Positions 5,821 to 48,630 of a stretch of DNA of 64,000 nt are shown one piece after another. This DNA is from a virus. Within the stretch, counting starts at the first letter, position 1. Each line of letters starts with the position of its first letter. The notes under the pieces are model-generated. The model was not told the origin of the DNA. It searched no databases and was given only the letters and a program-made list of their open reading frames with translations. Location: positions 5,428-69,427 of the IMG/VR virus record IMGVR_UViG_3300031578_000010; one strand, given 5' to 3'. Both the position numbers and the translations under genes were made by a program.

Positions 5821-5847
5821 GGCCTACTAATTACTATTAGTAGGGCC
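5821..5847 (-). terminator. Hairpin overlapping MCP stop codons (possible attenuator)
   Basis: GGCCTACTAA / TTAGTAGGGCC inverted repeat containing TAA TAG TAA stops; weak U tail. Confidence 0.35.
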
Positions 5848-7123
5848 GGCGACGGATATTGATCGCCTTCACGACCTTATCCAGGCTTTCGACCTGGCTA
5901 TCCGTCTCGTTGATTACGACCGTCTCCCAACGGGCATAATCCTTATTCCATTCCGTGTAAACCTCTGTTTTGTCCAGGTTGCCCCAAATGAAATTGAGCG
6001 GATTTGCAAGCCACGCGATGCAGCCGTCGTTCAGCGTTCCTGCGCCTCCCGCGTCGGTCCCGACATAGGCGGCGACTGCAACTCCCAGCGTTGCCCACCC
6101 GTTTCCTGCGCCGATAGTCAGCGTTGCGCCCGAACCCGACGTCGGGTGCTGGAGATAGAGATGGCCGAAACCGTCATCCTGTGCGATGAGAGTTTCGAGT
6201 CCGGTTGCTGCCTTCAGGAGCGCGGCGACCTCATGGGCAGAGAAAACGCCCTGCGGCAGCGTGCAAGTTACGGCGCCTGCTCCGAGGTTAACGACGAGCG
6301 TGTCGTTCGTTCCTGTCACGACGTTCCACGGCCCCTGCGTCGTTCCGAGAATATGCCCTGCCGTCGCCACCGTGACATTGATGGACTTGCGTGAAGGCAT
6401 GAGAGGAATCGAAATGATCGGAACACCGAAAGGCGCCTCGACGTTCCCCTTGTACGCCCTCTCACCGATCGCGTCGATTCTTTCCGAGTTGATTTCGACC
6501 CAATCGATCTGAAGAGACCGCGGCACGAAGAACCGAAGACCCGTATCGTCCTGATACGAATCCGGGAGCCTCCTGATCATGTTCGCGAAGAGAGTTTTTG
6601 AAATGAACTGGGCGACATGGTCGAGGATATGGGCGCCGTCCGTGATCTTGTCCAACCCGTCGTTGATCAGGAGCAGGTTAGCGATTGGCGTACCTGCGCT
6701 GATGGTATCGTCGCCGTTGATGTGCAGGTTTTCCATATCGGTCGCGATCTGAGCCATCATCGCTTCCGAAACCTGCTGCACAAGGCGCTCGCGGGAAACG
6801 TTCCGGCGAATTGCGCGGCGGGTGATGTGGTAACTGGAAACCATTTCCGCCGTTTCGAGGGAAACGTTGTTGATCAGCGGCGTCCCGGTTTCCGAAATGA
6901 GAGAGTTGTCCGTCAGCCCGACGGTGATCGGCTCACCCACGTGGAGCTTCGGAATTTCAACGCGAGGGTTATCCATGATTTCCGTCCGGCAGAGGGGGAT
7001 AAGCTTCGTGAAACGCCGAACGTAACTCAGGAAAACATCGCGCTGCTTCGCGTTCAGGAGCCCGCCGTTCAGGAAGGAACTTCCTGTAACAGCTTTGTGG
7101 ATCATCTGGTCGTTTCCGTCCAT
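5837..7123 (-). CDS. Major capsid protein (HK97 fold) with about 115-aa insertion domain
   Basis: GGLLNAKQRDVFL...RVEIPKL, QIATDMENLHINGD, PFGVPIISIPLMP, WLANPLNFIWG; start moved to ATG 7123 with SD GAAGGAG; follows scaffold. Confidence 0.9.
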   Translation of the reverse strand: MDGNDQMIHKAVTGSSFLNGGLLNAKQRDVFLSYVRRFTKLIPLCRTEIMDNPRVEIPKLHVGEPITVGLTDNSLISETGTPLINNVSLETAEMVSSYHITRRAIRRNVSRERLVQQVSEAMMAQIATDMENLHINGDDTISAGTPIANLLLINDGLDKITDGAHILDHVAQFISKTLFANMIRRLPDSYQDDTGLRFFVPRSLQIDWVEINSERIDAIGERAYKGNVEAPFGVPIISIPLMPSRKSINVTVATAGHILGTTQGPWNVVTGTNDTLVVNLGAGAVTCTLPQGVFSAHEVAALLKAATGLETLIAQDDGFGHLYLQHPTSGSGATLTIGAGNGWATLGVAVAAYVGTDAGGAGTLNDGCIAWLANPLNFIWGNLDKTEVYTEWNKDYARWETVVINETDSQVESLDKVVKAINIRRRPY

Positions 7124-7189
7124 TTTTAATCTCCTTCTATTTGGAAACACTTTTTTTACAGATAAAGAGGTTCCGCTTTTCTTTGCGGA

Positions 7190-8092
7190 TTAGAAATCCT
7201 TGACAGTGTTGAAGATCGAGAAGAAGGGATTCTCCTCGTTCGTCACATCGGCATCCACCTCTTCGTGCCCGTAATTCCTCTCATACGGCTTCTCATCGCC
7301 GCCCTTCTTTTCCTTGTTGCCCGTTTCGGCTCCGCCCAGAGCCTTTTCGATGGTCTCGACCCGCTTGAAAACGCCACCGAACTCCTCTTTGGCTGCTTCC
7401 TGGAAGAGTTTCACGAGCTCCTTGGCCCGATCGTCCAGCGCCTTCGTCAGCTCCTCCTTGATCTCCTTTGCGATCTCCTCCTTTGCGACGTCCAACGTCT
7501 TTTTCAGTTCTTCTTTCTCCACGGCACCTTCCTCCTTTTTTTCCTCCGCGCCGCCTTTGGGCTCGTCTTTCTTCCGCATCTCGGCTACGGCTGCGGAAAT
7601 ATCCTTCAATTCCTTGGCCATTTCCTCGAATTTTTTCATGACTTTTTCCTCGTCCTTCGCCAGCTTATCGTCGCCGGCAGTCGCTTCGCCCTTTTGGGCT
7701 GCGGAAGGATAACTGGAGAGGATGCCTTCGAGGATTTGAATGATCGCCCGATACTCTCCGGCGACCGCTTTCGGGAGGGGCGCCTTGTCCGCCTTTTCGA
7801 CGCCCTCTTCTCCTGCCTGCTCGCCCTTCTTCTGCATTCCTTCCAGGTTAGAAGCGAGGGAAATCAGGCGTTCAATTGCCGACTGCGTCTTCTTCAACAC
7901 AGCCGCAAGAACCGGAGCGGGAATATCCTGTTTTTCGATTCCCGTTCCTTCCTCGTTTGTACCACCCATGGCTTTTCCTCCATCGCGTTTCACGATAGCG
8001 AACCGTTTTTTGTTCGCGGGAATATCCACCAAGGATACCTCGCGAGGATCTATGTCCTTTAGATCCCACTTATATCCCTCGTCCGTCGCCAT
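7190..8092 (-). CDS. Scaffolding protein with N-terminal prohead-protease fragment (EVSLVDIPAN)
   Basis: E/K/A-rich coiled-coil body; N-terminal LKDIDPREVSLVDIPANKKRF matches the HK97-type protease EVSLVxxPAN motif; SD AGGAGG. Confidence 0.8.
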   Translation of the reverse strand: MATDEGYKWDLKDIDPREVSLVDIPANKKRFAIVKRDGGKAMGGTNEEGTGIEKQDIPAPVLAAVLKKTQSAIERLISLASNLEGMQKKGEQAGEEGVEKADKAPLPKAVAGEYRAIIQILEGILSSYPSAAQKGEATAGDDKLAKDEEKVMKKFEEMAKELKDISAAVAEMRKKDEPKGGAEEKKEEGAVEKEELKKTLDVAKEEIAKEIKEELTKALDDRAKELVKLFQEAAKEEFGGVFKRVETIEKALGGAETGNKEKKGGDEKPYERNYGHEEVDADVTNEENPFFSIFNTVKDF

Positions 8093-8106: not shown

Positions 8107-11100
8107 CTAAGTTTTGCGCCGGACTCGCGTTCCAAAACCTCCAATTGAATAGCCCGTTACTTTCCCATCCTTTATTTCTTTCCAGACATCATCCGAAATA
8201 ACACGAGTTCCAAGTATCCAACTTCCTTTTTTAACCGTTTGAGTCCCTAATAAAAACTCTGTCGGTGCAATATAGCATTCCATTATTCTAAATTTCTTTT
8301 TAAAATCCTCATGTTGATATCCGATCTTCTGATGAAACTCCATAAAGCGATGGCAAGCCTTCGCTATTTCTTCTTCACTACAAACATCCCCTTGAGCATC
8401 AACAGTATTGGGTTCTAATACCACCCCATATACAGTTTTTTGGTCTTTATTAACCTTGAATATAGGCGAAAATATTTCAAACTTTTCCAACTCCTTTGTA
8501 ACAACAGGCTCGCCATAAGATGTGCGCTCAACATGATCAACAGTATCAGGTTTATTCACCTTATTTAATGCCGTGATAATAGGAATAAACCAAGCAACAT
8601 GTGTCTTGCCATCCTTATCATCAACAAATATTTCCGAAGCTGTTATAGTAACTATATCCCCTAACTTGCCTTGAAAATTAGTATTGAATGTCTGACCTAT
8701 TACTACATATAATTTTCCACCAAACTCCTTAACTTCAGTATATTTATCCTTATCGGCCATAGGAATAGGACCGATTCCACCTGTAAAATTCCAAGTTTTA
8801 TCGCTTCCTGCAACTTTGTGTTTATCAAGAATAATAGCGTTGATAATTCGTGGTATTTTATATTTTGCCCAAGATGATGTTCTGCCTCCTAAAGTATAAG
8901 TTGAATTCCAGAGTTTAAGAACCGCCCCTTCAGATCCCGGAAGTAACTTTGCCTTTTCTATCGCATCCCGCAACTCTTTTTCATTATTCGTTGTCCAATA
9001 CTGAGTCGGCTCGAGATGCTTGAATCCCTTTATTTCTTTTTCGACTTCCTGTGCAACTTCATAATATGGTTTCCTTAGCCAATCCTCATTATCCCAATAT
9101 AATATCCCAAAAACCCGACAAACTAAATTTGAATCATCCAAAGGTTTATCAGTCGCTGCCCATCTAACGAGCATTTTCCTATTAACGATATCATTCCTCT
9201 TATCATTTGTGTATTCTATTAATTCTGAATCAAGTATAAAATCTCCTTTTATTCCTTTTACTTCTTCTGAAATAGCCGGCATAGCAAAAGCCCTATCTTC
9301 CTGCTTATCTTCAAAGAATATTATTAACTTTGCATCCTTGCCATCCCCTTTCTTTTCAATTATGGTTCTATATCCATTCCATTTAGGATTGACTATAACC
9401 TTCCCTTTGCCATTAAATATGGTTTTTGCCCATTTTTCAACTAACACATCAACATCAAAAAACTCTCCAATATTAAATCCCCCTTTAGGCTTCAAAGGAA
9501 TAAATTTAACAAAGGGCGCAAACTTGGCCTTCATAGAAGGGAATATTTCTTCTTCGCTGACTGCCTTAGCCTGCGGAGATTTTTCCTTTTGATATTTTAA
9601 TTTCCAGAATTTAGAACCAGTCTCCTCCTGCTCCATTGTCCACAAACCTTTTATATGCTTTAAATCAACCTGAAATTTAATGAACCCCTCAGAATCCTCA
9701 AATATTGTCGCTTTGCCTTCATCGATCGTTTTTATCCACGAATACGTATTTTTTGTGCTATTTCCTAAAGTTCCAGGTTTAACTTCTCCATCAAGACCCA
9801 AGTATTTTTTATCCCTTATCTCCCTTACAGCAATTGATTCTATATTCTTTGTTGGGTCCTCCTCCATAACAAAAGAATCAAGTCCGCCTTTATCTTTAAG
9901 TTTAAAATAAAACGTCCACTCTTCCCTTGATGGCCCCACTCGAACAGTTGTTTGTCCCTTCCACATCTGATATTGAAAACTAAAATCCACCTCCTTTTTC
10001 CTAATATCTCTAACAGATAACATTATCTTTTTCTTCTCGACTCTCTTATATTCATTATTTATTATCTCTATGTTCTCTTCAGTAAAATATTTCTCAGAAA
10101 CTAAGGCATCTCGGATTTCCATTGCCTTAGCCCCCTTGCTTTCCCAAAAACGAAACTCCTTTGGCGTTTGTTGCATTAAAGACAATGGCATAGCAGAAAC
10201 GCCATTTGGAGGCATACTTTTAGTTTTAACTGATCTTTTATTAATGACGGATGGCAAAAAAGTCTTAGAAATAAACCCACGCCAAAACGTAGGGTTCTTT
10301 CCTGCTCTTTCATATCCTTCAGTTGATAATAACCTTAAATGTAGAGAACCGTTAAAATATTTCCCATTCGTAAGAAAATATTCATGATAATACGGCTTCT
10401 GAATTCCCCACTCTACACAATATTTTTTAGGATCCTCAATTATAACGAATATTCCAGGCTCATTAGCCGTCGCCCCAACTTCTCCGGGTTTCACAACTCC
10501 CTCGACGGCAATCCAATCAATAGGCTCCGGTTTCTTTGGCGTACACTGTAAACCTTTAGGAGCAAGAATAGGTTTTAAAAATTCGTTTCCGTTTCCCATA
10601 TCATAATTAGCAATTATCTTTCTGCCATCTGCAACAGTATTAATATCTTTAATCTTGCCGGGATATTGAAAGAATAAGGTCCAACCTATTAATTCCTTTG
10701 TGCCAATATCCATCCTTAAATCAGCATGAACAGTATCGCCTCGAAAATGTAGCTGGACTACTGCGCGTCTTTTTCCTGTTTCTTTAGGATAAAACATTAA
10801 TTCCGATTGCTTAATTATTCGATCATATATTTCAATATATAGAGGGTCTTCCTGTAACCCCTCTTCTGTTTCAATATAATCATTATCGTTAAATGATTCT
10901 CCCATTTTCACAACAGATAAATCATTATTAACCTGGAATAATAAATCACCCAAAGGTATATTATTAGTAAAGGGACCGTCGAAATCGTCAGACATTACGC
11001 TAATTCTTTTGCTTAATTCCTTCGGCAGCATCCTTCCAAGTCTAAACTCTACAACTTTCAACATCCCTGCTGGAATATCCCCTTTAACTAAAAAATCAAT

Positions 11101-11532
11101 ATCTCCTTCGGTTTCGCCATTATTAACCAACCCTCCCGTTAAATAAACAAAAGGCTGCCTTATCTTAAAAGATTTCAAGAGGGGCAGGACTTCGGATAGT
11201 TGTATTTTAGCCCCTATTTTATTTCCAGAAGAACTGATAGGCGCTAACTCTATAACCTCCTTTTTTATTTCCTCTTCCTCTGCCTTCTTCTGCGGTAATT
11301 TTCCAGGAAGAGAAGAGGCGTGTTTAAATCCTCGCGCTTTCATTTCGGCAACAACTAATTCATGGGCATTCCAGATATCCTCCAAGGAATAGACTAAATC
11401 CTTAGGCGACTTCCTTTTTAATGTCCAAAGGCTATGAAGGTGGCGATGTAGGTTGAGCAGAGCAGAGTCCTTTTCTTCCTTCAAGGACTTCACATTTATT
11501 TCAGCTATACTAAGTTTAATTAATGGTTCCAT
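8107..11532 (-). CDS. Multidomain polyprotein: nucleotidyltransferase-like + 2x LigD-type 3'-phosphoesterase + ATP-dependent ligase/OB + XkdF-like prohead protease
   Basis: GGLVNNGETEGDID (aa133-146); VVQLHFRGDTVHADLR (aa258-273); KWNGYR, ILDSE, EGAVLK, GRTSSWAKYK (aa717-892); VYGVVLEPNTVDAQGD...QHE...WKEIKDGKVTGYSIGG (aa1034-1132); located between MuF and scaffold. Confidence 0.85.
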   Translation of the reverse strand: MEPLIKLSIAEINVKSLKEEKDSALLNLHRHLHSLWTLKRKSPKDLVYSLEDIWNAHELVVAEMKARGFKHASSLPGKLPQKKAEEEEIKKEVIELAPISSSGNKIGAKIQLSEVLPLLKSFKIRQPFVYLTGGLVNNGETEGDIDFLVKGDIPAGMLKVVEFRLGRMLPKELSKRISVMSDDFDGPFTNNIPLGDLLFQVNNDLSVVKMGESFNDNDYIETEEGLQEDPLYIEIYDRIIKQSELMFYPKETGKRRAVVQLHFRGDTVHADLRMDIGTKELIGWTLFFQYPGKIKDINTVADGRKIIANYDMGNGNEFLKPILAPKGLQCTPKKPEPIDWIAVEGVVKPGEVGATANEPGIFVIIEDPKKYCVEWGIQKPYYHEYFLTNGKYFNGSLHLRLLSTEGYERAGKNPTFWRGFISKTFLPSVINKRSVKTKSMPPNGVSAMPLSLMQQTPKEFRFWESKGAKAMEIRDALVSEKYFTEENIEIINNEYKRVEKKKIMLSVRDIRKKEVDFSFQYQMWKGQTTVRVGPSREEWTFYFKLKDKGGLDSFVMEEDPTKNIESIAVREIRDKKYLGLDGEVKPGTLGNSTKNTYSWIKTIDEGKATIFEDSEGFIKFQVDLKHIKGLWTMEQEETGSKFWKLKYQKEKSPQAKAVSEEEIFPSMKAKFAPFVKFIPLKPKGGFNIGEFFDVDVLVEKWAKTIFNGKGKVIVNPKWNGYRTIIEKKGDGKDAKLIIFFEDKQEDRAFAMPAISEEVKGIKGDFILDSELIEYTNDKRNDIVNRKMLVRWAATDKPLDDSNLVCRVFGILYWDNEDWLRKPYYEVAQEVEKEIKGFKHLEPTQYWTTNNEKELRDAIEKAKLLPGSEGAVLKLWNSTYTLGGRTSSWAKYKIPRIINAIILDKHKVAGSDKTWNFTGGIGPIPMADKDKYTEVKEFGGKLYVVIGQTFNTNFQGKLGDIVTITASEIFVDDKDGKTHVAWFIPIITALNKVNKPDTVDHVERTSYGEPVVTKELEKFEIFSPIFKVNKDQKTVYGVVLEPNTVDAQGDVCSEEEIAKACHRFMEFHQKIGYQHEDFKKKFRIMECYIAPTEFLLGTQTVKKGSWILGTRVISDDVWKEIKDGKVTGYSIGGFGTRVRRKT

Positions 11533-11538
11533 TTTTAA

Positions 11539-11853
11539 TTATTCCTTCGGAGCGGCCTTCTTCGGAACGAGATCCTTGACCCTAAAATTAATTCGATGCT
11601 TATGGCTTTCATCCGAAGAAGTGAAGCCCAAGATATCCCCGCCCACGACAGGAAGATCGACTTTGTGAACATGCCCGTTAACCCGCTCCGTTCTTCCTGT
11701 TATTTTCTCCTTGGAAATGATGAGAGAAATCCTGTGCTGATGGCCAGCCATGATATTGGAAAAGAACTCCGCTCGCGGCGCCTTTTTCTCGATGCCGCAG
11801 AAATCGTCCATTTCCTCTCTTGAAGCGTTCAACCTTTTCGCGATGGGTTCCAT
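11539..11853 (-). CDS. Small HxH-repeat (YmaF-like) head-module protein
   Basis: GHQHRI, GHVHKV, SHKHRI repeats in 104 aa. Confidence 0.7.
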   Translation of the reverse strand: MEPIAKRLNASREEMDDFCGIEKKAPRAEFFSNIMAGHQHRISLIISKEKITGRTERVNGHVHKVDLPVVGGDILGFTSSDESHKHRINFRVKDLVPKKAAPKE

Positions 11854-11896: not shown

Positions 11897-13093
11897 TTAA
11901 ACCCCTTGGGCCTCTTCCCAATCTTGTATTTTGACATCTTCTTCTGAAATAACGACTGAAGACCTGCAATGCGCGTGAAAAGGAGGCAGCGCCGGAGGAT
12001 TTCCTCCTCGCGGGGCCGTCTCAACCACTTCCTGAGATGTTATTTTCTTTGCAGGTTTAAACCCCTTATCCGTTGCCTTAAATGTTGAATTAGGAAGATA
12101 TATTTTTTCGCCTTTAGGCCCTCCATAGAACAAGGCGGGTTTCCCTTGCTCGGCTCTTACAGAATCAAAATTTAACCAAGGACGCAAAGCCTTAAAGGCA
12201 TTTATATCACTATCAGATCTTGAATCCGGAATGCCATTTTCTTGGATATCTTTGACTATTTTCCTAGCCAATTCAACTTCAAAAACCATCCCATCCATTG
12301 CTTCGCATATCTCACTCGTTCTTTCGTCCATCACTGCTATAATTTCATATTTTCTAATTCTTGCCTCTTCAAATGCTGTAACCTGAGCAAAATTTCTTGC
12401 TCTATTGATAACATCGCTTGCTAATATGCTTAAATAAGTATTTCCTCTCTGTGCAAGAACAGAAGGAAGTTCTTCTCGCATCAAAGAAGCTAAAGCGCTT
12501 TTTGGCAAATTCTCTTGAACTATCCGAGACGCCAAAGTATTAACAGAGCCTATTAAAGTTTTATCGTATATTCCACTTATAAAAAAGTTATTATTATTGT
12601 TTAAAATGTTTATTACGGCCTTATCTTGTTGAGTCAATCCCGCCTTTATAGATCGTTTTAATTTCTTAGCAGCAAGGGCTACAACCTTTTTGGTTGCCAC
12701 TATCTGGTTTTTTAAAGCCTGTTTAATAGACTTTGTTGCCTGCAAAGCAACAGATGGGCCAAGTTCCTTTTTCAATGTATTATGTAATTTGTTGAGGGCT
12801 TTCTCATTTATCCTATAATTTCCAGGTTTGCCAGATATTCCATTCTTAATAAAGGAAGCAATAGCCGATCCACTTTTGACTTTAGTTTTTATTTTAAAAG
12901 CAAAAGCGCTTCGCATAGCCTTAAATGCTTTTAATTCATTTACACCCGGATGATCCGGGCCGGTGCCTATTGTTATCCCGAATCCTTGTTTCCTTACTCC
13001 GCCCAGCCTGATAATTATTTCCTGAACTATCTTCTGACTTCTTATCAGGTTTTCAAGCGAAGTATTCTTAAATATTTTATATTTCAAGGTCAT
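11897..13093 (-). CDS. MuF / SPP1 gp7-like minor head (head morphogenesis) protein
   Basis: YEIIAVMDERTSEICEAMDG and PPALPPFHAHCRS motifs; follows portal; start moved to ATG 13093 (SD GGGGAG). Confidence 0.9.
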   Translation of the reverse strand: MTLKYKIFKNTSLENLIRSQKIVQEIIIRLGGVRKQGFGITIGTGPDHPGVNELKAFKAMRSAFAFKIKTKVKSGSAIASFIKNGISGKPGNYRINEKALNKLHNTLKKELGPSVALQATKSIKQALKNQIVATKKVVALAAKKLKRSIKAGLTQQDKAVINILNNNNNFFISGIYDKTLIGSVNTLASRIVQENLPKSALASLMREELPSVLAQRGNTYLSILASDVINRARNFAQVTAFEEARIRKYEIIAVMDERTSEICEAMDGMVFEVELARKIVKDIQENGIPDSRSDSDINAFKALRPWLNFDSVRAEQGKPALFYGGPKGEKIYLPNSTFKATDKGFKPAKKITSQEVVETAPRGGNPPALPPFHAHCRSSVVISEEDVKIQDWEEAQGV

Positions 13094-14633
13094 AGAGACT
13101 CTCCCCAATATCCTGCCTTTCGCCGATAGCCTTTTCAAGAGTATTGTTTAAACTCATGAGGGAATCTATTATAGAAGAATCCTTTGCTCTATCCGCAGGA
13201 ACTTTCATTCCTTGCATAACCAGAGGCAACGGCATATCCGCCCAATTTTCTGTAAATCTTGGCTTGCCTAAATAATCTCGGATATCGTTAGGAGTTATCC
13301 CTCCTGTCCTTTCCATTTTCTTATATATCGTAGCCAATCCTTCGAAGTCTGTTTTCTTCGGTCGAACCAATTTAAGCCATAATATTTTAATTCCCATAGC
13401 CCTCATCAGTGTTTTATTTAATATAAATTCTATTTCAGCAATATCCGGTTCAAAAGTCTGGTCATTCGTTATTGATCTTCCTACGCTTCCTCCTGCCCGC
13501 GTGATATCAGAAGCAAAGAAAACAGGATGTAACCCGAATACCTCCGATATTTCCCCATCATTTCTATCCTGATACTTTAAATAACCTGCATCCTCAGCAA
13601 TGCCAACAGTAAGTTTATGGAACTCTATTTTGACATCTTCTTTTTCTGTCATTGACCCTTCGCGGGTTCCCGCCTGAATAATCATTATTCTGCCGGTATT
13701 TTTTGTTCCCTTTCCTTTTCGTTCCAGGAATTCTTTTATATCTTCTCGGCTTTCCTTCGATAGCCTATATGGACCGCTCACCACTATTGCAATTCTTGGA
13801 GTTGCATCATTCTCAAAGAATGTAGAATTTCTTTCTCCCGCAAATCTGCTGCCCGCAATAGCTGGCGCAGTTGATAGATGTCTCGGAATTCCATAAGATG
13901 ATTCCCTATATCCTGCAACTTTAAAATGTATTAATTCCCGGGCTATTAGTTCTGGCTTAGTTAATCCCGAGGTTTTAATTCCTGTATTTTTATCTACAAC
14001 ATCTTTATCGCCCCAATCCTTAAAATGAGTTACCTTCCTATTTTTATCTATTGCAACAAACCCGCCTTTCTTCTTTATCCTGACCGTTTGTCCGACAATT
14101 CGTTCAAGACCAATAGGAAGATAGTCGCCATCCTTTGTTGTTTTAGTTAAAGACCTATGAACAGCGAGATAGCCATTTCCTATAACTTCTCGATCGCCGA
14201 TTACTTCTTTAAGAATAACTGAAAAAGGCATAGTAGGATGAGGATCATCAAGGAAATCTTCTATTAACTGTGACTCATCCTCGATATTCCGTTTAAGTTC
14301 TTCCAGTTGTTTCTTTTCATCCTCCGTCATTTCTTTTCTTGAACGTTCTATAATCCTTTTATATCTCTTTTTTGGTTCTAATTCATAACCAAGGCCAGCA
14401 GCATTAGTTGCACGTATTTGAACACAAGCAGCCAACCTTGTGGATATTTCAGGAGCAATAGCCCAATCATCTATTGAGAAGGGCGGTTTCTCTAATTCCA
14501 TTCCGCCCAACGAATAGAAGGTAACTGAAACAGAATTCCCGCCATCAAGGCGCTTTCCAAGCGGCGCGCCTTTCTGCAAAGGCTCGTCAATAAAAACATC
14601 CACTTCGATAGGGCTTTGTTTTTTCTTTACCAT
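13077..14633 (-). CDS. Portal protein (PBSX/HK97-type)
   Basis: 518 aa; RELIHFK...YGIPRHL, NSTFFENDATP, ISEVFGLHPVF, ITPNDIRDYLG. Confidence 0.92.
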   Translation of the reverse strand: MVKKKQSPIEVDVFIDEPLQKGAPLGKRLDGGNSVSVTFYSLGGMELEKPPFSIDDWAIAPEISTRLAACVQIRATNAAGLGYELEPKKRYKRIIERSRKEMTEDEKKQLEELKRNIEDESQLIEDFLDDPHPTMPFSVILKEVIGDREVIGNGYLAVHRSLTKTTKDGDYLPIGLERIVGQTVRIKKKGGFVAIDKNRKVTHFKDWGDKDVVDKNTGIKTSGLTKPELIARELIHFKVAGYRESSYGIPRHLSTAPAIAGSRFAGERNSTFFENDATPRIAIVVSGPYRLSKESREDIKEFLERKGKGTKNTGRIMIIQAGTREGSMTEKEDVKIEFHKLTVGIAEDAGYLKYQDRNDGEISEVFGLHPVFFASDITRAGGSVGRSITNDQTFEPDIAEIEFILNKTLMRAMGIKILWLKLVRPKKTDFEGLATIYKKMERTGGITPNDIRDYLGKPRFTENWADMPLPLVMQGMKVPADRAKDSSIIDSLMSLNNTLEKAIGERQDIGESLYDLEI

Positions 14634-37652: not shown

Positions 37653-37907
37653 TTATGTATTTTCGGGAAATGTGACTCTTACGTTCATTATATTAAGAAA
37701 AGAAACTTCCTGTAAATTAACAACAGAAAACTCTCTATCGATATATTTCTGCATCATTTCAGGATCATCTAATAAACGAATAAGGGCTTTATTGTCAGAA
37801 CAAAGAATAAACTCCTCTAACTTTCCCTGCAATGTCGCGCCTGTTCGAAAATGAATAGTAACACTCGCCCCAATATGATATTCTTTATTTCTCATTTGAT
37901 CACACAA
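37653..37907 (-). CDS. Small Sm-like beta protein (tentative)
   Basis: VTIHFRTGATLQGKL...SVVNLQEVSFL. Confidence 0.5.
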   Translation of the reverse strand: MCDQMRNKEYHIGASVTIHFRTGATLQGKLEEFILCSDNKALIRLLDDPEMMQKYIDREFSVVNLQEVSFLNIMNVRVTFPENT

Positions 37908-38817
37908 GAGTTTTCTTAACTAATAAACCCCTTTGTAATCTTGAACCAAATTTATCTAAGTATTCTTCGAAAGTAATGCTATTTCTAAAAACAGACCCGG
38001 TTGCAGAATAAAACCTAACCAAAGGCGTTATTACACGTCTATCCCAGCCTTTCGGAATATATTCTCCTAACTTCTCAATATTCAAAGGGCGATATCTCAT
38101 AGGAAATGGCAATACGCCAAATTTCCTCAATAATTCAAGTCTATACAAAGTTTCTTCTAATGTATCTTTATAACCAAATAAAACATATACTCGAATATCT
38201 CGTGCCTTCCATCCCGCTCTTATAGCTATTTTTATTGCATTTATTACCTGGTCTTCCTCTTTAATAGAATCAAAAGCGAACCTCAATATACATTTAATTT
38301 CTGCAAATTTGCTGGCTATTGTTTTCGTAAACCTACAGGCATCTAAGCCTTGATTAAAATCAACTAAATTAAATCTCTTGCACGAATCTATAACTTTCCA
38401 AATATGCTTTTTAGATGCTGCAAGTAAATTATTATCACAAATTATTGGCGCGGGCTTAAATTTTATGATTTCTTTTATGTCTCCTTCCAATCTTGGGACC
38501 GCACAAAATCCACAGCTATTCGGGCAACCCCTTGTTGTAAATGTTGCATTTGGATTATATAAATTTAAAGGTGAAACACCCCTTGGCGCATCCTCTTCTA
38601 CATTTGCAAGGCCTTCGAACTTCTGTCGAGCCAAAACAGCTCCAGGACCGCCAACAATTATTTTTTTAGGAGGAAAAAAAGACCCCAACGAAGCTTTTAT
38701 TTTTCTTATCGTCTTTTTTACAAGCCAAGTAAAAGGAACAGAAATATATAAAGAATCTTTTTGCTCCCAACTTATCGGCCCAAGCTTCCATTTATTTTCG
38801 CGTTTTAGATTATTCAT
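37900..38817 (-). CDS. Radical SAM protein
   Basis: TTRGCPNSCGFCAVP (CxxxCxxC), CDNNLLA, DFNQGLD. Confidence 0.9.
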   Translation of the reverse strand: MNNLKRENKWKLGPISWEQKDSLYISVPFTWLVKKTIRKIKASLGSFFPPKKIIVGGPGAVLARQKFEGLANVEEDAPRGVSPLNLYNPNATFTTRGCPNSCGFCAVPRLEGDIKEIIKFKPAPIICDNNLLAASKKHIWKVIDSCKRFNLVDFNQGLDACRFTKTIASKFAEIKCILRFAFDSIKEEDQVINAIKIAIRAGWKARDIRVYVLFGYKDTLEETLYRLELLRKFGVLPFPMRYRPLNIEKLGEYIPKGWDRRVITPLVRFYSATGSVFRNSITFEEYLDKFGSRLQRGLLVKKTLV

Positions 38818-40511
38818 TAAAATACCATTACTTCGGCGTCGTTATCTTCCGCCTGTTGTTTTAATTGAGCATCTGCGGCGGCCCTTGCAATTTCTCTTCC
38901 AAAATGAATAAAGAAATCAAATCGCAATGCCGCGAGCATTAAGGAATCTGGTCCGTGATCTTCTGCCTTAATTGGTTTGCCAAATTCGTCTTTCTTATAA
39001 TTAACTAATTGCCGATATAATATTCTATTAGACCGCACATTTAAAATCCTTAATCTACTCGAATTAATATATCTTTCCAGGTTTTGAATTCCTGTTTCTT
39101 TATATTTATTAAATGCAACGCTTTCGACAGTAAATCCAGACTTTCTTAAATACATTATCCCATAACTTTGTTCACTATCCCCGTATACAAGAAAATCGCC
39201 AAAACGAATTCTTATTGCCTTTAATGTACTAACAATATAATCTAAATCCCTTCCGACTGAAAAATCAGAAAAAGGAACTATTAAAGCGTTGCTCCCTTTT
39301 ATTGCCAAAGTAATAGCGCACTGTTTTGATGTTCCAAAATCAATCCCAACCGATCTTTTCGTATCCTGCAAGTTAGGAATTATAACTCTATCAACTAAAC
39401 TTCTTCTTAATTTCTTTGTATTATAAACTTTTGATTGTGTTTCAGGGCGACAACATTCAAATTCAACCTTCCAGTTTTGCCCTTTTATTTCCGCCTTTTT
39501 CTTTATCTTCAAAGCCTGTTCGAAACTAAGCCAGCCATCGGTTTTTCTGGCTATTCCATCGCATCCAAAATATCTTACTTTAATTATGTTCCCTTCCGAA
39601 TCTTTTTTAATTTTCTTACGAGTGAAAACACATTTCTTACAATCAATATCCCTTTCACATTTGGCGAAACAGGAAAAAATATTCCATTTAACTCGAACAA
39701 AATCTAACGCCTCTGCTTGATCCCACGTATCCGCAAAATGCCCAACCGGCAAATGAAATGTCGACAAATATAGAATAACGAAATCTTCTTGTGTTATTAC
39801 TGAATTTGTCGCCTGCAAAATATTATCATCTTTATATCTTTCTTTCTGGCAAACCTCATCGGCAACGAATCCTTCCGGATGTTTCCCTCTCGTTGCATTT
39901 TGTGAATTAGGAATAACTTTTAAATTTACACCATTTTTTAAATTAGTCCTGTGCATTAAAGGTTCGCCATCAAGCAGCCTTTCTTTTAATGATGGCAAAC
40001 ATTCCCAAAATGCTGTAATATAACTATAAATTTCTAATGCTTGTTCTTGCGATCCTGCAAGGTCTGAAAAAGAAAGTTTTCTCCAAACCATACAAATGAA
40101 AATAAGAACGGCGGCTATAAGCGATTTCCCTCCGCCTCTATTTGCCCAAACAATTATCGCCTGAACAGTATTTCCCTTCTTATCTTTTCTTGCAAAAAAT
40201 AAATCCGCCAAAACCTTTAAATGTTTCTTAATAAGTTTAATTGTTTGTTTCTCACCTCGTTTTATAAACCACAAATTATTTTCAACAAAATCCTTTATCG
40301 CGTTTTCTTGCCTTCTATAAAAAACCTTTCTTGTTTCTTCCGGATTCCTTTTTAAATTAAAATCATAAAATTCAATATTAGGGTCTAAGTTCCGATTCTG
40401 CTTGAGCTGTTCCCACTGTTCCACTATTTGGCCCAAGACCGTATTCGGCGAGTTTTCTGAAAATTCGTTCCTTAATTTTTTCATTATTAATCTCTTGATC
40501 CAAAACCCCAA
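38817..40511 (-). CDS. terL: Terminase large subunit
   Basis: Walker A ANRGGGKS, Walker B FVADE, nuclease VGIDFG and EDHGPDSL; exact start uncertain (40511 or 40484). Confidence 0.9.
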   Translation of the reverse strand: MGFWIKRLIMKKLRNEFSENSPNTVLGQIVEQWEQLKQNRNLDPNIEFYDFNLKRNPEETRKVFYRRQENAIKDFVENNLWFIKRGEKQTIKLIKKHLKVLADLFFARKDKKGNTVQAIIVWANRGGGKSLIAAVLIFICMVWRKLSFSDLAGSQEQALEIYSYITAFWECLPSLKERLLDGEPLMHRTNLKNGVNLKVIPNSQNATRGKHPEGFVADEVCQKERYKDDNILQATNSVITQEDFVILYLSTFHLPVGHFADTWDQAEALDFVRVKWNIFSCFAKCERDIDCKKCVFTRKKIKKDSEGNIIKVRYFGCDGIARKTDGWLSFEQALKIKKKAEIKGQNWKVEFECCRPETQSKVYNTKKLRRSLVDRVIIPNLQDTKRSVGIDFGTSKQCAITLAIKGSNALIVPFSDFSVGRDLDYIVSTLKAIRIRFGDFLVYGDSEQSYGIMYLRKSGFTVESVAFNKYKETGIQNLERYINSSRLRILNVRSNRILYRQLVNYKKDEFGKPIKAEDHGPDSLMLAALRFDFFIHFGREIARAAADAQLKQQAEDNDAEVMVF

Positions 40512-40932
40512 TAATTACAGAAACAGTTTGTTGAAGAACATGAATAGAAATAGTATGTTTAACGCCATGCTCTAATTTATCCAGCCTTTCGATATCCTGC
40601 GAAATAGAATTTAATAATTGGGAAGCATTATTTATTGTTGCAATATTTAATCGTTTTTTCTCTGCCGATCGCCTTGCAAATAACTCATCCAGCAATGCCC
40701 GTTTTAATGCAATATTCACGCGCAAATTGCAAAGGTTTTCATTACCTAAATATTTCGCAACTCTTTTAGCGAGTTTTTTGCGCAAAACCTTAGAATGTAG
40801 CCCCGTTTTTATAGGGCGCCCACCAGGATGTTTTTTGGAGCCGGCGCCATGGACTTGGCAAACGGAGAAACCTTCAACGGCGCGACGTCTGCATTGTTGG
40901 CCTGTCGCCTTACATTTTGCGTGGCATTGCAT
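40378..40932 (-). CDS. terS: Terminase small subunit (Zn-finger HG-x-S type)
   Basis: CHAKCKATGQQC...CQVHGAGS...GRPIKTGLHS, helical C-terminus; directly upstream of terL. Confidence 0.75.
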   Translation of the reverse strand: MQCHAKCKATGQQCRRRAVEGFSVCQVHGAGSKKHPGGRPIKTGLHSKVLRKKLAKRVAKYLGNENLCNLRVNIALKRALLDELFARRSAEKKRLNIATINNASQLLNSISQDIERLDKLEHGVKHTISIHVLQQTVSVIIGVLDQEINNEKIKERIFRKLAEYGLGPNSGTVGTAQAESELRP

Positions 40933-41107
40933 ATCGTTCGCTCCCTTATAGCGCCCTTCCCTACCTCTATATACTATCTTTAAGACTTTAATACTTTAAA
41001 TAACTTATGCCTCCGCAAACATTATAATTATATTTTAACCTAACTCATTAAAGCGTAAGGGGTTATGGAAAGACTGAATATCCCCCCTACATTTTTCGCT
41101 TTGTAAA

Positions 41108-41500
41108 CTAATCTCCATCCGCCATCGCAGTCGCCCTTACTATTAATGATTCCATACGAAAACCGTAATAAAATGAATCCATCCCTTGTTCAATTTTAGC
41201 ATGAAAAATAATACTATCTAAAATATTTCCTTCTGTATCTAATCTGCGAATTTCTGCTATTTTTTCATTTTTAAAATTGTGCAATATTTTATTGATATTT
41301 TGCGGTTTAAACGCTGCCGCCTTCGGACCGAATCCTCGAAAAACCCGAACGGCATTTGCCCCATAAGAACGGATAATGGATACCGGAACGTCCTTCCCTC
41401 CTAAAATTAATTGAAAAATAGAATATTCTGGTCTTCCTGCAAAAGAAGAAAAGAAGATCATTCCCTGTTCAAATCTTTGTCTTATCGTTTTATCTTCCAT
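41108..41500 (-). CDS. Hypothetical protein
   Basis: 130 aa. Confidence 0.55.
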   Translation of the reverse strand: MEDKTIRQRFEQGMIFFSSFAGRPEYSIFQLILGGKDVPVSIIRSYGANAVRVFRGFGPKAAAFKPQNINKILHNFKNEKIAEIRRLDTEGNILDSIIFHAKIEQGMDSFYYGFRMESLIVRATAMADGD

Positions 41501-41503
41501 TTT

Positions 41504-42418
41504 CTAATCCGCCAATATTATAGACAAAACTTTAGCCAAGCCCTGAAAATTCCTGTGCTTCATTTCAAACTTTCTAACCTGTTTCATCATAGCTTCTATA
41601 TCACAGAACCGAACCCCTTTTAATCTTTTATATATTTTCGAGAATTCCTGTTCATATTCTATTCCGAGTTCCCGACCATAGCGGCAAATCTTGACAAGTT
41701 TATAAGCAAGATTCACAACAGGCAAATTATCTTGAACCTTTTTTATAAATGGTTTCGGATCATTATCCTTTTGTAGATCCTTTAAAGTAGGATATTTTTT
41801 AACAATTTCTAAAGCCCGTTTTTCCCCAATCCCCATAACTCCAGGAACGTTATCGCCAGTATCCCCCATCAAAGATTTGACCTTGATAAAGTCTTTTGGC
41901 ATTATTCCATATTGTTTTTTGAATTCTTTAAGATCTATCATTTCCTTTTGCGTTGGTCTAAAAACGCTTATTTTTTCATCTATTAATTGAAGGAGATCTT
42001 TATCGGCACTCGCAATAATTACATTAAGACCGTCTCCAGCATATAAACGAGACATAATGCCCATGATATCATCGCCTTCTACTCCTCGAATTGAAACCTG
42101 CCTAACATTTAAAACCTTAAAGAACTTCTTTGCCATTTTGATCTGTTTAAACAAAGGTTCTAATTTCTCGCGAGATTCTTTTCTATTCGCTTTATATTCT
42201 GGAAAAATTCCCTGCCTTAAAGCCGATCCGCCTTTCCCATCCCAGCAAATAATTAAACGATCATAGCTTAGGTCGGCATACATTTTCTTTAACATTTGAA
42301 GAATGCCAGAAATAACAGATGTAGGAACTCCTTTAGAAGTTTCTAAATTTCTGGTCATGTAGGCCCGGAAAGCGAATAAATTGCCATCAAGTATTAGAAT
42401 CTTCTTATTATTCTTCAT
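41504..42418 (-). CDS. 5'-3' exonuclease / flap endonuclease (PolA N-terminal/T5-like)
   Basis: LILDGN, CWDGKGGSALR...YKANR, EGDDIMG, SADKDLLQL, LMGDTGDNVPGVMGIGEKRA; start moved to ATG 42418. Confidence 0.92.
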   Translation of the reverse strand: MKNNKKILILDGNLFAFRAYMTRNLETSKGVPTSVISGILQMLKKMYADLSYDRLIICWDGKGGSALRQGIFPEYKANRKESREKLEPLFKQIKMAKKFFKVLNVRQVSIRGVEGDDIMGIMSRLYAGDGLNVIIASADKDLLQLIDEKISVFRPTQKEMIDLKEFKKQYGIMPKDFIKVKSLMGDTGDNVPGVMGIGEKRALEIVKKYPTLKDLQKDNDPKPFIKKVQDNLPVVNLAYKLVKICRYGRELGIEYEQEFSKIYKRLKGVRFCDIEAMMKQVRKFEMKHRNFQGLAKVLSIILAD

Positions 42419-43004
42419 CGCCTTCTTCATCCTCTTCATCTTCATCTTCTTCTTCCTTTTTCTTAGATGGGGGCTCTTCCTTCCGAATATAAGCCGGCAT
42501 AACCCGCTCAATTAATTTCCTTATTTCAGCAAGATCGATAAATTTATCAACAGAATTCACCAAATCGATAGCAGCAGATTCGAACTTGGAAGAAACCGCT
42601 ATTATTCTTTTCCCGTGCAACCTCAGATATTCTATTACAGGAACGAAATCTCCATCCCCAGTGACTAACACCGCTATATCGAAATTTCTTTTGGTCAACA
42701 TCATATCCATGGCCATTATAATATCTGTGTCTCCCTTTACTGCAACCTCTCGCCCTGATTTCTGAATTCTTTGCTGCTCCCTCCTTCTTACAGTAAACCC
42801 ATTGTTCAGTAAAAAGATGGCGAAGTTTCTCTTTTTCGTATCTTCCTCCCATGAAGTATAATAAAAGCAATTATATATGGCGCAATCTGCCGCTAACAAT
42901 TCCCTCAATTTTGTGAAATCAACCTGCCATCCAAGATAACTGAGGGTTCCGTAGAGATTGTCGCCATCGATGAACAAAGCAATTCTTTCCTTAGAATTTA
43001 ACAT
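42408..43004 (-). CDS. NYN domain (LabA/DUF88) nuclease
   Basis: LFIDGDNL, KGDTDIIMAMD, LVTGDGDFVPVI...GKRI. Confidence 0.88.
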   Translation of the reverse strand: MLNSKERIALFIDGDNLYGTLSYLGWQVDFTKLRELLAADCAIYNCFYYTSWEEDTKKRNFAIFLLNNGFTVRRREQQRIQKSGREVAVKGDTDIIMAMDMMLTKRNFDIAVLVTGDGDFVPVIEYLRLHGKRIIAVSSKFESAAIDLVNSVDKFIDLAEIRKLIERVMPAYIRKEEPPSKKKEEEDEDEEDEEGDEE

Positions 43005-43498
43005 ATCTCCTCCTCAATTCGTCTTCTATTCCTTCTTCCATATTCTGCCAGGCAGAAAGCATCGACTACATTGTCGCGAACTGCTAATGGCACGCCAGGG
43101 AAAGAGCAACCCGATATCTTTTTTGCGGCAGTAAACATCATCCCCTTCGATGCATGGCCATATCCTGCTATCTGTTTCTTTAAAGTAGTCGGATTAACTA
43201 TTTTGATTTTAATATTTCTTATAAATAATCCTCTGCGAATACACCACCCTAACTCCCCAATATTAAAAACCATTCCGCCCCCTCTGCTTTTCTGATAGGC
43301 GTATCCTTCAACAATTCCCAAAGAAGGCTTGAATTTCTTTAAGATCTCTTTTATTTCTTTCTCTATAAAATAAAGACGTGGATCTCCTCTTAACTTTCCG
43401 GGGCGAATAACGCCATACTCTTTTATTTCGCCCTTCTCTAAAAATGCCCAACCTGTCGCAACATGACTGGGATCAATTCCTAATATTCTTTTATACAT
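42998..43498 (-). CDS. ruvC: RuvC-like Holliday junction resolvase
   Basis: ILGIDPS...TGWA, IVEGY, GHASK, DNVVDAFCLA. Confidence 0.88.
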   Translation of the reverse strand: MYKRILGIDPSHVATGWAFLEKGEIKEYGVIRPGKLRGDPRLYFIEKEIKEILKKFKPSLGIVEGYAYQKSRGGGMVFNIGELGWCIRRGLFIRNIKIKIVNPTTLKKQIAGYGHASKGMMFTAAKKISGCSFPGVPLAVRDNVVDAFCLAEYGRRNRRRIEEEIC

Positions 43499-45524
43499 TT
43501 TGTTTTATTACACTCCTTCTTTCGATTCTTTTAACCACTGCAACATCCGGCAGCTGGCTTCTTAATTCCTTCAAATGGGATATTACAATAACAGAACTAA
43601 AATTATTCCTCAAAGAATATAATAGATTAACCAACCGCTTCCTTGCCTTATCATCTAAGGAAGAGAAAACCTCATCTAAAAATAATAAATCACAATTCAT
43701 ACTCGAACTCTTGGCGGCTAATTCTGATAACCCTAAACCGATAGCAAGAATTATAGACTGTTTCTCGCCTCCAGAATACGATTCGAAATCGGCTATGCCT
43801 TCAGGAGATATTATGAATATATCCAATTTCTCTTTATAATTCCCCGATTTAGTTTTTGCGCCTGTTGTGAATTCTGCACTTATTCCCTCATCAGAGAGTA
43901 TATCAAGATATTTATTTACTTTCTCATTTAAGACAGGCAGCACATTTTCTATTATTATTTGTCTTACACCTCCTGTTTTAGAAAACATTTCTACTACAAA
44001 TTCTTGATTTCTTGTTTTCTTAACTAATTCCTCCCGTTCTTTATCTAATACGTTCGCGGCCTTTATCTCCGCCTGCATTCGTTCTATTTCACGATTAGCT
44101 CCTGCAAGTTTAGTCTGATGCTCTGCAACCGTACCTTTTGTTTTAAGAAGCCCTTTCCTTAATCTCTCTAACCTGTCAGCAGAATAATCCTCCGCTTTTA
44201 TATCTTCTAAAATAATTGTAGCCCTATTCCTTGCCGCTTCTTTTCGTTTGGTTTCGACTTCTATTTCTTCAATTTCGCTATCAACCTTCAGGAGCTTTTG
44301 TGTTTCACGAATCCTGTCCTGTAAATCTTCAGCAGTTGGCAAAGAAATAATCTTCTCTCTTTTCCTTTCCAAAGTATCGAGCCTTTTAGTAATTTCTCCT
44401 ATCTGTTTCTTTAACGCCTGGTATTTATTCCCTGCTATCGTTAAAACTTCCTTTTCATGATCCATTAATTTAGTTTTTACTTCTTCCGTATATTCGCGCT
44501 GGCACTCCGAACATATTTTCTTTTTCTGAATATAATTAATCTTATCCTTTGCATTCTTTGCTTGCAACTTGGAAGAGATTTTTCCTTCCGTCTTTTCTTT
44601 TAATATAGTATTTCTTTCTGCAATTTCTGCCTCTATCTCTTTTAATCCTCCTCTTACAATTTGAACATTATCTAATTGAAGTTCAAGATCTTTTATTTTT
44701 TCAGCGCTATCGCCTGATATCTCTTTCAGTTGGTCTTTTCTTCGATTCAAAGAATTTAATTCTTTGGCAGTATTTTTTAAAGTATTCCTTGCAGAAGTAT
44801 CAGCGGCCTCAAGGCGCTGTAATTTCTTCACTAACTCGTTTAAATTACTATATTTCTCTTCTGCTTCCTGTAAAGTCTCTTTATAGACCTGGACCACTTC
44901 TTGTAAACTTTTTAATTCCTTTTTTAATCTGACCCTATTTCGCAATTCAAGTTCAGTATCAATCATTTTTATCCTATCTTTTGAAATAAATAGTTTCGCC
45001 CGGGATATGTCCGAACATTTATTTAATATTAAAAGGCCAAGAAAATTTGTTAAAAGTTCGTATCTCTCAGATGATCTCAGAGAAACAATCTTTGCAAGAT
45101 CTCCTTGTCCAAATAAAACAGAATTTCTAAATGCTTCAAAATCAAATCCAATTAAATTTACAATTTCCTTATCAGTATCCTTCAGCCCCTTCCCGAACAC
45201 CTCCCCCGTAGTCAAACAAGTAAAGCGAACTGCCCCATGATTGCCAGGATCTCGGCTTCTAATTACTTCATAATTATTTCCATTATGTTCAAATTCAAAT
45301 GCCGCAGAACCAGAATTGGCCCCACGTCTTAATATCTGGGCCTTTGTAACGCCCCATCTTGTTGTCTGCCCGAATAAAGCGAAAGTAATAGCCTCGAAAA
45401 TTGAAGACTTCCCTGCGCCGTTCGGGCCTACTATTAAAGAGAGCTGCTCAGAATAAAAATTGAATATATTAGTTTTCGTTCCATATTTAAACAAATTATT
45501 TATTTCGATTTTTATCGGCTTCAT
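43491..45524 (-). CDS. sbcC: Rad50/SbcC-like (T4 gp46-like) ATPase
   Basis: GPNGAGKSS, zinc hook CSEC, signature YSGGE, Walker B LFLDE, ISH. Confidence 0.92.
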   Translation of the reverse strand: MKPIKIEINNLFKYGTKTNIFNFYSEQLSLIVGPNGAGKSSIFEAITFALFGQTTRWGVTKAQILRRGANSGSAAFEFEHNGNNYEVIRSRDPGNHGAVRFTCLTTGEVFGKGLKDTDKEIVNLIGFDFEAFRNSVLFGQGDLAKIVSLRSSERYELLTNFLGLLILNKCSDISRAKLFISKDRIKMIDTELELRNRVRLKKELKSLQEVVQVYKETLQEAEEKYSNLNELVKKLQRLEAADTSARNTLKNTAKELNSLNRRKDQLKEISGDSAEKIKDLELQLDNVQIVRGGLKEIEAEIAERNTILKEKTEGKISSKLQAKNAKDKINYIQKKKICSECQREYTEEVKTKLMDHEKEVLTIAGNKYQALKKQIGEITKRLDTLERKREKIISLPTAEDLQDRIRETQKLLKVDSEIEEIEVETKRKEAARNRATIILEDIKAEDYSADRLERLRKGLLKTKGTVAEHQTKLAGANREIERMQAEIKAANVLDKEREELVKKTRNQEFVVEMFSKTGGVRQIIIENVLPVLNEKVNKYLDILSDEGISAEFTTGAKTKSGNYKEKLDIFIISPEGIADFESYSGGEKQSIILAIGLGLSELAAKSSSMNCDLLFLDEVFSSLDDKARKRLVNLLYSLRNNFSSVIVISHLKELRSQLPDVAVVKRIERRSVIKQNV

Positions 45525-46530: not shown

Positions 46531-46569
46531 AATTTCATCCTTTCATTATCGACTTCCTTCTTTGTTTGG

Positions 46570-47619: not shown

Positions 47620-47632
47620 GGTGTGCTCCTTC

Positions 47633-48625: not shown

Positions 48626-48630
48626 GTTAT

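Follow-up and report, generated by a model that had tools for sequence, protein, structure and literature searches.

Known parallels and the locus

In bacterial LigD, a polymerase (POL), a 3'-phosphoesterase (PE) and an ATP-dependent ligase (LIG) are carried on one polypeptide, while DarB of phage P1 and IPI* of phage T4 are proteins built into the phage head and ejected with the DNA against host nucleases. A protein with features of both was analyzed here in an uncultured phage (IMG/VR record IMGVR_UViG_3300031578_000010). The window, meaning the whole stretch of 64,000 nt under analysis, covers positions 5,428–69,427 of a record that in full spans 90,431 bp at a CheckV completeness of 100%. 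The protein, P0001, hereafter the polyprotein, is encoded by an open reading frame (ORF) of 1141 aa in the head gene module. We read it as a polyvalent head protein in which end-processing enzymes precede the sole prohead protease of the phage and which would be loaded into the capsid for the repair of DNA ends, and assign to this reading a probability of roughly 55%.

The likeness to LigD lies in the PE fold (Z 12.8–16.3), in the His-His-Asp-Arg site of the first of two PE domains (PE1), in an ATP ligase on the same polypeptide, in a probable nucleotide-adding domain and in a domain order that, as with LigD, is rearranged from one relative to the next. By analogy, the triad of nucleotidyltransferase (NTase), PE and ligase would parallel the POL-PE-LIG logic. 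Stand-alone archaeal PE proteins are likewise similar in PE fold and metal site; the structures of these and of LigD are PDB 3n9b/3n9d, 3p43, 3p4h and 5dmp. The polyprotein differs from LigD in that a Pol-beta-fold NTase takes the place of the archaeo-eukaryotic primase (AEP) polymerase, Ku is missing, the PE domain is duplicated with one copy apparently dead, the equivalents of His84 and Tyr88 are replaced, ligase motif I reads KxNG and a viral capsid protease is fused to the enzymes. A bona fide LigD system of non-homologous end joining was rejected, as no Ku was found in the complete genome, extending what an earlier note on this DNA had reported for the window, and no AEP polymerase was found in Pfam and NCBIfam scans of P0001.

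DNA methyltransferases occur in relatives of the polyprotein, as in DarB. DarB and IPI* differ from it in protecting the DNA by modification or inhibition, not by repair, and in being targeted to the head by other Dar proteins or by capsid-targeting sequences, not by fusion to a prohead protease. Closer in its position is gp33 of the cultured Lactococcus phage 28201, an XkdF protease-scaffold protein that occupies the same slot between MuF and capsid genes and whose protease domain is approximately 44% identical. In that protein and in phrog_3017 the protease is followed by the scaffold in cis, whereas in the present phage the scaffold, with a strand described below, is encoded by a gene of its own, and the protease is preceded by roughly 1000 aa of enzymes. 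Fusions of cargo to XkdF are already present in PHROGs, in families annotated as DNA methyltransferase (phrog_1530, methyltransferase-XkdF) or RNA ligase.

Head-packaged multidomain counter-defence is an established concept, set out for the polyvalent proteins of phages and conjugative elements (Iyer, Burroughs, Anand, de Souza, Aravind 2017, PMC5512222). Like these, the polyprotein joins several disparate predicted catalytic domains and a virion-associated domain in one polypeptide linked to the head module beside portal and MuF, with predicted travel with the DNA, a processing peptidase and frequent DNA methylases as further points in common. The polyvalent proteins use zincin-type and other peptidases and MuF or portal anchors, whereas here the anchor would be a prohead protease and the cargo would serve end repair. 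No ATP-dependent DNA ligase, LigD PE or XkdF was found in that inventory when the full text of PMC5512222 was searched, and its authors report that their 2H domains never occurred together with ligases. Another phage ATP ligase, gp17 of PhiKMV, was reported to mitigate cleavage by CRISPR (Cas12a) and restriction-modification (EcoRI) systems, the cuts being tolerated by resealing (preprint 10.64898/2026.09.21.753257); it differs in being a free expressed enzyme that lacks end-healing domains and a link to the capsid. The combination of end-repair cargo with a prohead-protease anchor appears undescribed, in that no description of this architecture was found in a literature search of incomplete coverage. 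The doubt voiced in the earlier note, as to whether the architecture had been published, is eased in part.

Domains of the polyprotein

The polyprotein is read without interruption from the minus strand, and the plus-strand reading of 8107–11532 was discarded as it is full of stops. A Shine-Dalgarno-like AAGGA lies 11 nt ahead of the ATG, and the G+C content of the ORF is 37% as compared to 40.6% for the window. The following features were delineated.

8107..11532, minus strand: whole polyprotein ORF (P0001), 1141 aa, a single uninterrupted reading frame
11308..11532, minus strand: aa1–75, conserved helical hairpin (A0), model pLDDT >90
10933..11199, minus strand: aa112–200, probable minimal Pol-beta-superfamily NTase-like core with G133, D144 and D146
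10258..10794, minus strand: aa247–425, PE1, predicted LigD-type 3'-phosphoesterase with conserved His-His-Asp-Arg site, from profiles and conservation
10030..10257, minus strand: aa426–501, helical linker with MPPxGxSAxP and PKEFRYW motifs, from the alignment, model helices at pLDDT >95
9571..10014, minus strand: aa507–654, PE2, second LigD-PE-fold domain lacking the metal triad, from structure and profile
8857..9426, minus strand: aa703–892, ATP-dependent DNA ligase adenylation domain, PF01068 (DNA_ligase_A_M) at E 6.7e-17
8497..8856, minus strand: aa893–1012, OB-like C-terminal ligase region with degenerate motif VI, from the family alignment
8116..8487, minus strand: aa1016–1139 at the extreme C-terminus, XkdF-type (Peptidase_S78_2) putative prohead protease, PF14550 at E 7.9e-33

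This inventory agrees in large part with the earlier note, which had described the same 1141-aa ORF without giving its strand and had placed an NTase motif, a LigD PE motif, a second degenerate PE domain (aa~513–650), ligase motifs I, III, IIIa, IV and V, an OB-like region and an XkdF-like protease along it. All motifs were recovered at the residues named there. Both PE domains, the ligase and the protease were borne out by the profile and structure comparisons that follow, while for the NTase the motif position was confirmed and the fold received moderate support. The OB-like region was retained on the strength of the family alignment and weak leads only.

The assignments of the C-terminal half are firm at the level of profile matches. 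The XkdF domain scores 113.6 bits (cut-off 24) on PF14550 over aa1024–1136, where positions 5–124 of the 126 in the profile are aligned, and matches the head maturation protease family phrog_3017 at E 4.7e-41; its role in proteolysis and capsid maturation is putative, as PF14550 itself is annotated. The adenylation domain scores 62.3 bits against a PF01068 cut-off of 26.2 and is further supported by NCBIfam ligase models and by the A. fulgidus ligase structure 3gde. The ligase motifs read KWNGYR (717–722), LDSE (767–770), VFGILYW (IIIa), SEGAVLK (867–873) and WAKYK (888–892). Of these, motifs III, IIIa, IV and V align with the family motifs, III and IIIa with substitutions (S for G and G for D), and the motif I lysine, K717, is conserved. 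The call of an OB-like domain downstream is weak: no Pfam match was obtained for the region, and ESM features for DNA_ligase_OB_2/DNA_ligase_A_C at 0.88–0.89 are a lead only.

In contrast to this half, aa1–700 gave no Pfam or NCBIfam match, neither as a whole region nor in segments. Family alignments were built from a search with aa1–700 that returned 35 large relatives of 700–1984 aa, whose segments recur in a rearranged order, and two AlphaFold models were calculated from these alignments (aa1–240, pLDDT 85.7; aa240–665, pLDDT 90.7). In the latter model PE2 unambiguously has the LigD 3'-phosphoesterase fold. VIA superposed aa514–651 on 3p43 with Z 16.3 and an rmsd of 2.3 over 119 of 124 residues, followed by 3p4h (Z 15.3), the P. 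aeruginosa LigD PE 3n9d (Z 14.0) and 5dmp (Z 12.8), at rmsd values of 2.1–3.8, while the next unrelated structure reached only Z 4.6. Foldseek agreed (E 2.7e-6, probability 1.00), as did the PE2 family profile when compared to 3p43 (E 2e-7).

PE1 carries insertions and was identified through its motif QxH......HxDxR at aa260–273. Residues H262, R264, G265, H269, D271 and R273 do not vary across 32 sequences, and the metal-site counterparts in P. aeruginosa LigD are presumably H42, H48, D50 and R52. When the PE1 profile was run against 177,635 PDB sequences, the two best matches were the archaeal PE proteins 3p43 and 3p4h, at E 0.03 and 0.07, aligned at this very motif. PE1 also aligned to PE2 in hhalign with 95% probability (E 3e-8), and 78 of its 100 ESM-atlas neighbours were LigD_N clusters. 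Neither P0001 nor its segments matched PF13298 (LigD_N), while the PE1 segments of 13 of the 32 relatives did so singly and below threshold (best E 1e-4), with no other family recurring. In a separate scan, relatives scored 18–27 bits on this model, for which the cut-off is 31.1. As invariant residues, PDB profile matches, hhalign, LigD_N matches and atlas neighbours all agree, PE1 is well supported as a PE domain with an invariant His-His-Asp-Arg site that looks active. Its predicted activity is that of a 3'-phosphomonoesterase or of 3'-ribonucleotide resection.

Upstream of PE1, aa123–198 are probably a minimal Pol-beta-fold nucleotidyltransferase. The motif GG..G...DID at aa133–146 fits hG[GS]x9-13DhDh, with G133-G134 followed after ten residues by D144-I-D146-F; G133 and D144 do not vary, and at least 90% of the sequences keep D146. 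Minimal NTases were the only PDB structures that covered the core in VIA, with Z 5.8 to the MNT structure 8xeh_E and 5.6 to HI0073 (1no5_B). A shape search of the ESM atlas with aa123–197 returned named clusters nearly all of which were NTP_transf_2, Polbeta, NTP_transf_6 or HEPN-NTase, aligned over 72–77 residues at rmsd 3.0–4.0 (3.0–3.4 for the NTP_transf_2 and Polbeta clusters), and the ESM features are consistent with this call. The top PDB match of the NTase profile, Pol X of African swine fever virus, was non-significant (E 0.3), and no Foldseek match to the PDB below E 0.001 was obtained with the aa1–240 model. A candidate third carboxylate is D183/D184, which follows a strand at 177–181 in a column that is acidic in most relatives and not in all. 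A word-index search retrieved no stand-alone relatives of the segment.

The remaining segments are conserved helical parts. The linker of aa426–501 was present in 172 collected proteins. The hairpin A0, with helices at 22–41 and 50–66, was present in 96 of 179 and usually lies just N-terminal to the NTase domain; its structural matches, ribosomal protein L29 for example, were helical hairpins of a generic kind (Z up to 7.7). A relationship of A0 to T4 endonuclease V (Pyr_excise) was considered on the basis of weak Pfam matches in 7 of 31 members (best E 4e-4) and was dropped when a 50-sequence profile found no pyrimidine-dimer glycosylase in the PDB.

Proposed loading into the head and repair of DNA ends

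The neighbouring genes are as follows.

13077..14633, minus strand: portal protein, phrog_12 at E 4.6e-41
11897..13138, minus strand: MuF-like minor head protein, phrog_115, phrog_2841 and phrog_241
11539–11853, minus strand: ORF of 104 aa between MuF and polyprotein, lacking a PHROG match
7190..8092, minus strand: scaffold-like protein P0037, 300 aa, rich in Glu, Lys and Ala, starting 14 nt past the polyprotein stop
8021..8074, minus strand: aa7–24 of P0037, conserved strand motif D-I-D-x-x-E-V-S-L-V-D-x-P-A-N, predicted to dock on XkdF
5837..7150, minus strand: capsid/virion structural protein, phrog_1623 at E 1.2e-47

On the minus strand the order is thus portal, MuF, 104-aa ORF, polyprotein, scaffold and capsid, which is the order given in the earlier note save for the 104-aa ORF that it had missed. 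The polyprotein contains the sole XkdF domain of the complete genome, in which no Peptidase_S78 or ClpP protease was found, and its XkdF domain is the only recognisable prohead protease of the phage. Likewise, it contains the sole ATP-ligase domain, and no NAD ligase was found in the complete genome. In five relatives on independent contigs the gene is found without exception between portal/MuF and scaffold/protease/capsid genes. Variants lacking XkdF are among these, and one of them, in L004, is located directly upstream of a Peptidase_S78 gene.

Complex prediction placed scaffold residues 7–24 against XkdF residues 1124–1139 and nearby parts, with an ipSAE of 0.72 as compared to 0.00 for the best control and with runs agreeing in at least 66% of contacts; the ipSAE mark that was applied is passed by 51 of 78 solved complexes and by 2 of 108 mismatched pairs. 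The strand motif is kept in the genes downstream of three XkdF-bearing relatives (L002, L005 and L006) and is absent in L003, which lacks XkdF. The prediction supports docking of the polyprotein on the scaffold via XkdF, and the modelled contact could complete the protease fold in trans. In the phrog_3017 profile, conserved strand positions 4–31 precede XkdF at 34–157. Here the strand belongs to the separate gene for the scaffold and follows XkdF instead of preceding it, an arrangement that resembles a split or permuted protease.

The following course of events is proposed. The C-terminal XkdF domain would bind the N-terminal strand of the scaffold and co-assemble inside the prohead, carrying along its cargo of roughly 1000 aa, the domains of which would be freed by maturation cleavage. 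The folded enzymes would remain in the head and exit together with the DNA upon infection. Within the host cell, PE1 would strip blocking 3'-phosphate or 3'-ribonucleotide ends, the NTase would add or adjust 3' nucleotides and the ligase would seal, such that breaks made by host nucleases in the incoming genome would be repaired, or genome ends joined, ahead of phage gene expression. We infer each of these steps, from prohead incorporation through cleavage, retention and ejection to end repair in the next host. Capsid loading, which the earlier note had also suggested, receives indirect support from the sole XkdF in the protease slot, the conserved position in the head module and the predicted docking on the scaffold. 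Of the enzyme kit put forward there, an NTase, an active-looking and a degenerate PE, a ligase and an XkdF protease stood, while the comparison to LigD did not extend to Ku or an AEP polymerase.

The recurrence of the architecture among relatives adds to this picture. Of 174 collected proteins with both PE domains, 110 have NTase and ligase and 58 have these plus XkdF, which is always C-terminal where present. Regions of the relatives that lie outside the assigned domains consist chiefly of DNA methyltransferases of the Dam and C5 types, and of inteins. As the additional cargo is mostly DNA methyltransferases, it points to DNA and to anti-restriction. Accordingly, DNA is favoured over RNA as the likely substrate, on account of these co-fusions and of the membership of the ligase in a DNA-ligase family.

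Several observations weigh against capsid-borne DNA-end repair. Support for the NTase is moderate, with Z values of 5.6–5.8, a third carboxylate that is not strictly conserved and no Pfam match for the segment in this protein. PE1 lacks equivalents of LigD His84 and Tyr88, since K-x-x-(E/Q)-P-x-x-W (K333, E336, P337 and W340) stands opposite E-D-H-P-x-x-Y of LigD in the HMMER alignment to 3p43, although the invariant PE1 residues H383-E-Y-F might compensate. In PE2 the His/His/Asp metal ligands and the Arg are all absent from the alignment, and by LigD criteria the domain is, as judged from these residues, catalytically dead. Motif I of the ligase is KWNGYR and not the canonical KxDGxR; in the collected family Asn is found at this position in 35 XkdF-fused ligases as compared to 1 non-fused ligase, and Asp in 19 fused as compared to 46 non-fused. 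The basic residues of motif VI are lost throughout the XkdF-fused clade, which shows WFxPxV (here WFIPIITALNK, lacking Arg) where distant relatives have FPRVxxxRxDK-like sequences. Adenylylation or sealing may consequently be altered or lost. The motif I lysine and motifs III, IV and V have been retained, however, so that the ligase is under selection but may differ in cofactor use or step chemistry. In the complex prediction the scaffold partner has a pLDDT of 47–49, leaving its own fold in the complex uncertain, and the docking could reflect the memory of the model for cis-folded proteases. Ends left by restriction and Cas nucleases are 3'-OH/5'-P and need no PE. In other phages, such as HK97 and T4, the prohead protease is as a rule degraded and does not stay in the head. 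LigT/2H, polynucleotide kinase (PNK) 3'-phosphatase and Tad3 domains in some relatives fit RNA or signal-molecule targets, and the ligase, being the only one of a phage that encodes a replisome, may act in replication or packaging.

The last of these points leads to the best surviving alternative, a late role in the cytoplasm or at the site of packaging, in which nicks would be sealed and ends cleaned on replicating or concatemeric phage DNA and the protease fusion would serve co-expression or prohead localisation, not delivery to the next host. The phage has DnaE, clamp, UvsX and SbcCD genes of its own and this single ligase, the polyprotein gene is expressed with the late structural genes, the ligase of T4 is required late and a protease normally gone from mature heads would fit as well. 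We nevertheless consider a late role unlikely, as fusion to the protease puts the cargo within the prohead shell and off the cytoplasmic DNA, the DNA methyltransferases and DNA-modification neighbours of the relatives resemble known injected anti-restriction proteins and host LigA suffices for replication in many phages.

Less probable still is an RNA or signalling-nucleotide target, whereby tRNA or rRNA that host anticodon nucleases or HEPN RNases had cleaved would be healed and resealed, or else a host toxin would be AMPylated by the NTase in the manner of MntA, with the PE removing 2',3'-cyclic or 3'-phosphates. In structure, the NTase core comes closest to the MNT antitoxins of HEPN systems, a KxNG-type motif I may occur in some RNA ligases, and PE, 2H and PNK 3'-phosphatase domains all treat 3'-phosphate-type ends typical of metal-independent RNases, the last two being added, together with Tad3, in relatives. 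The ligase nevertheless falls into the DNA-ligase family PF01068, not into the Rnl families, and has a putative OB-type C-domain, DNA methyltransferases are the commonest co-fused domains and the LigD PE works on DNA primer-templates.

That the cargo is mostly non-catalytic, consisting of degenerate internal head or DNA-binding core proteins that organise or pilot genome ends, for example, would account for the loss of all PE2 metal ligands, the non-canonical motifs I and VI and the missing His84/Tyr88 equivalents, but is improbable since K717, the motif III/IV/V residues, H262, H269, D271, R273, G133, D144 and D146 are invariant or nearly so in relatives 30–45% identical to the polyprotein, which argues for selection on the active sites.

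Capsid loading for DNA-end repair is hence the reading we prefer. A stronger form of it, in which a self-contained, Ku-independent end-joining machine of the capsid, analogous to LigD without being its orthologue, is loaded by strand complementation in trans between protease domain and scaffold, reseals breaks made by defence nucleases in the injected genome before any gene expression and is widespread in hundreds to thousands of phage lineages, is considerably more tentative, and we regard it as doubtful. Should packaging and activity of the cargo be borne out, the response of many phages to DNA-cutting defences would be to repair the genome on its arrival by means of enzymes made in advance. 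This would form a counter-defence class separate from hiding or modifying DNA or inhibiting the nuclease, and it would matter for predicting host range and for selecting phages for therapy. XkdF fusion together with scaffold docking would then be a simple route for loading arbitrary enzymes into heads, usable in laboratory strains for engineered protein delivery by phages. The family would also offer enzymologists ligase, NTase and 3'-end-healing modules of compact size whose active sites vary in unusual ways.

Relatives and neighbouring genes

The family is very large and almost wholly unannotated. A profile of the PE-linker-PE' module matched 1703 clusters at 50% identity, 714 of these at E <1e-30, in proteins of 411–2241 aa. 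Among GenBank phages the NTase-PE-ligase module was found only in the archaeal virus ANMV-1, where it is annotated as ATP-dependent DNA ligase. This homologue from an ANME-1 virus (KP703175.1, L007:3200-5800) is 30% identical over 75% of the query, lacks XkdF and adjoins a gene for a MutT-like hydrolase.

Single relatives add a LigT/2H, PNK 3'-phosphatase, metallo-beta-lactamase-fold or Tad3 domain. The added Tad3 (a Thoeris inhibitor), PNK-type 3'-phosphatase and metallo-beta-lactamase-fold domains are located at P0013:851-924, P0030:126-246 and P0031:571-758, respectively. Several family members (P0056, P0090 and P0098) are interrupted by inteins with LAGLIDADG homing endonucleases.

The gap between MuF and polyprotein genes was occupied in some relatives by 7-deazaguanine genes or by two C5 DNA methylases and Vsr (L005:3833-6055, L006:1033-2597 and L002:3145-7995). 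The 7-deazaguanine set consists of PTPS, a QueE-like radical SAM protein, GTP cyclohydrolase I and QueC. Genes for DNA modification and anti-restriction seem to cluster in the head module. At the site equivalent to that of the 104-aa ORF, small ORFs of 104–120 aa were seen in L004.

Elsewhere in the window, at 37900–48637 on the minus strand, a radical SAM gene adjoins that of the large terminase, and genes for an exonuclease, SbcC/SbcD-like proteins and a UvsX-like recombinase are also present. The phage has a recombination and repair set yet no free ligase.

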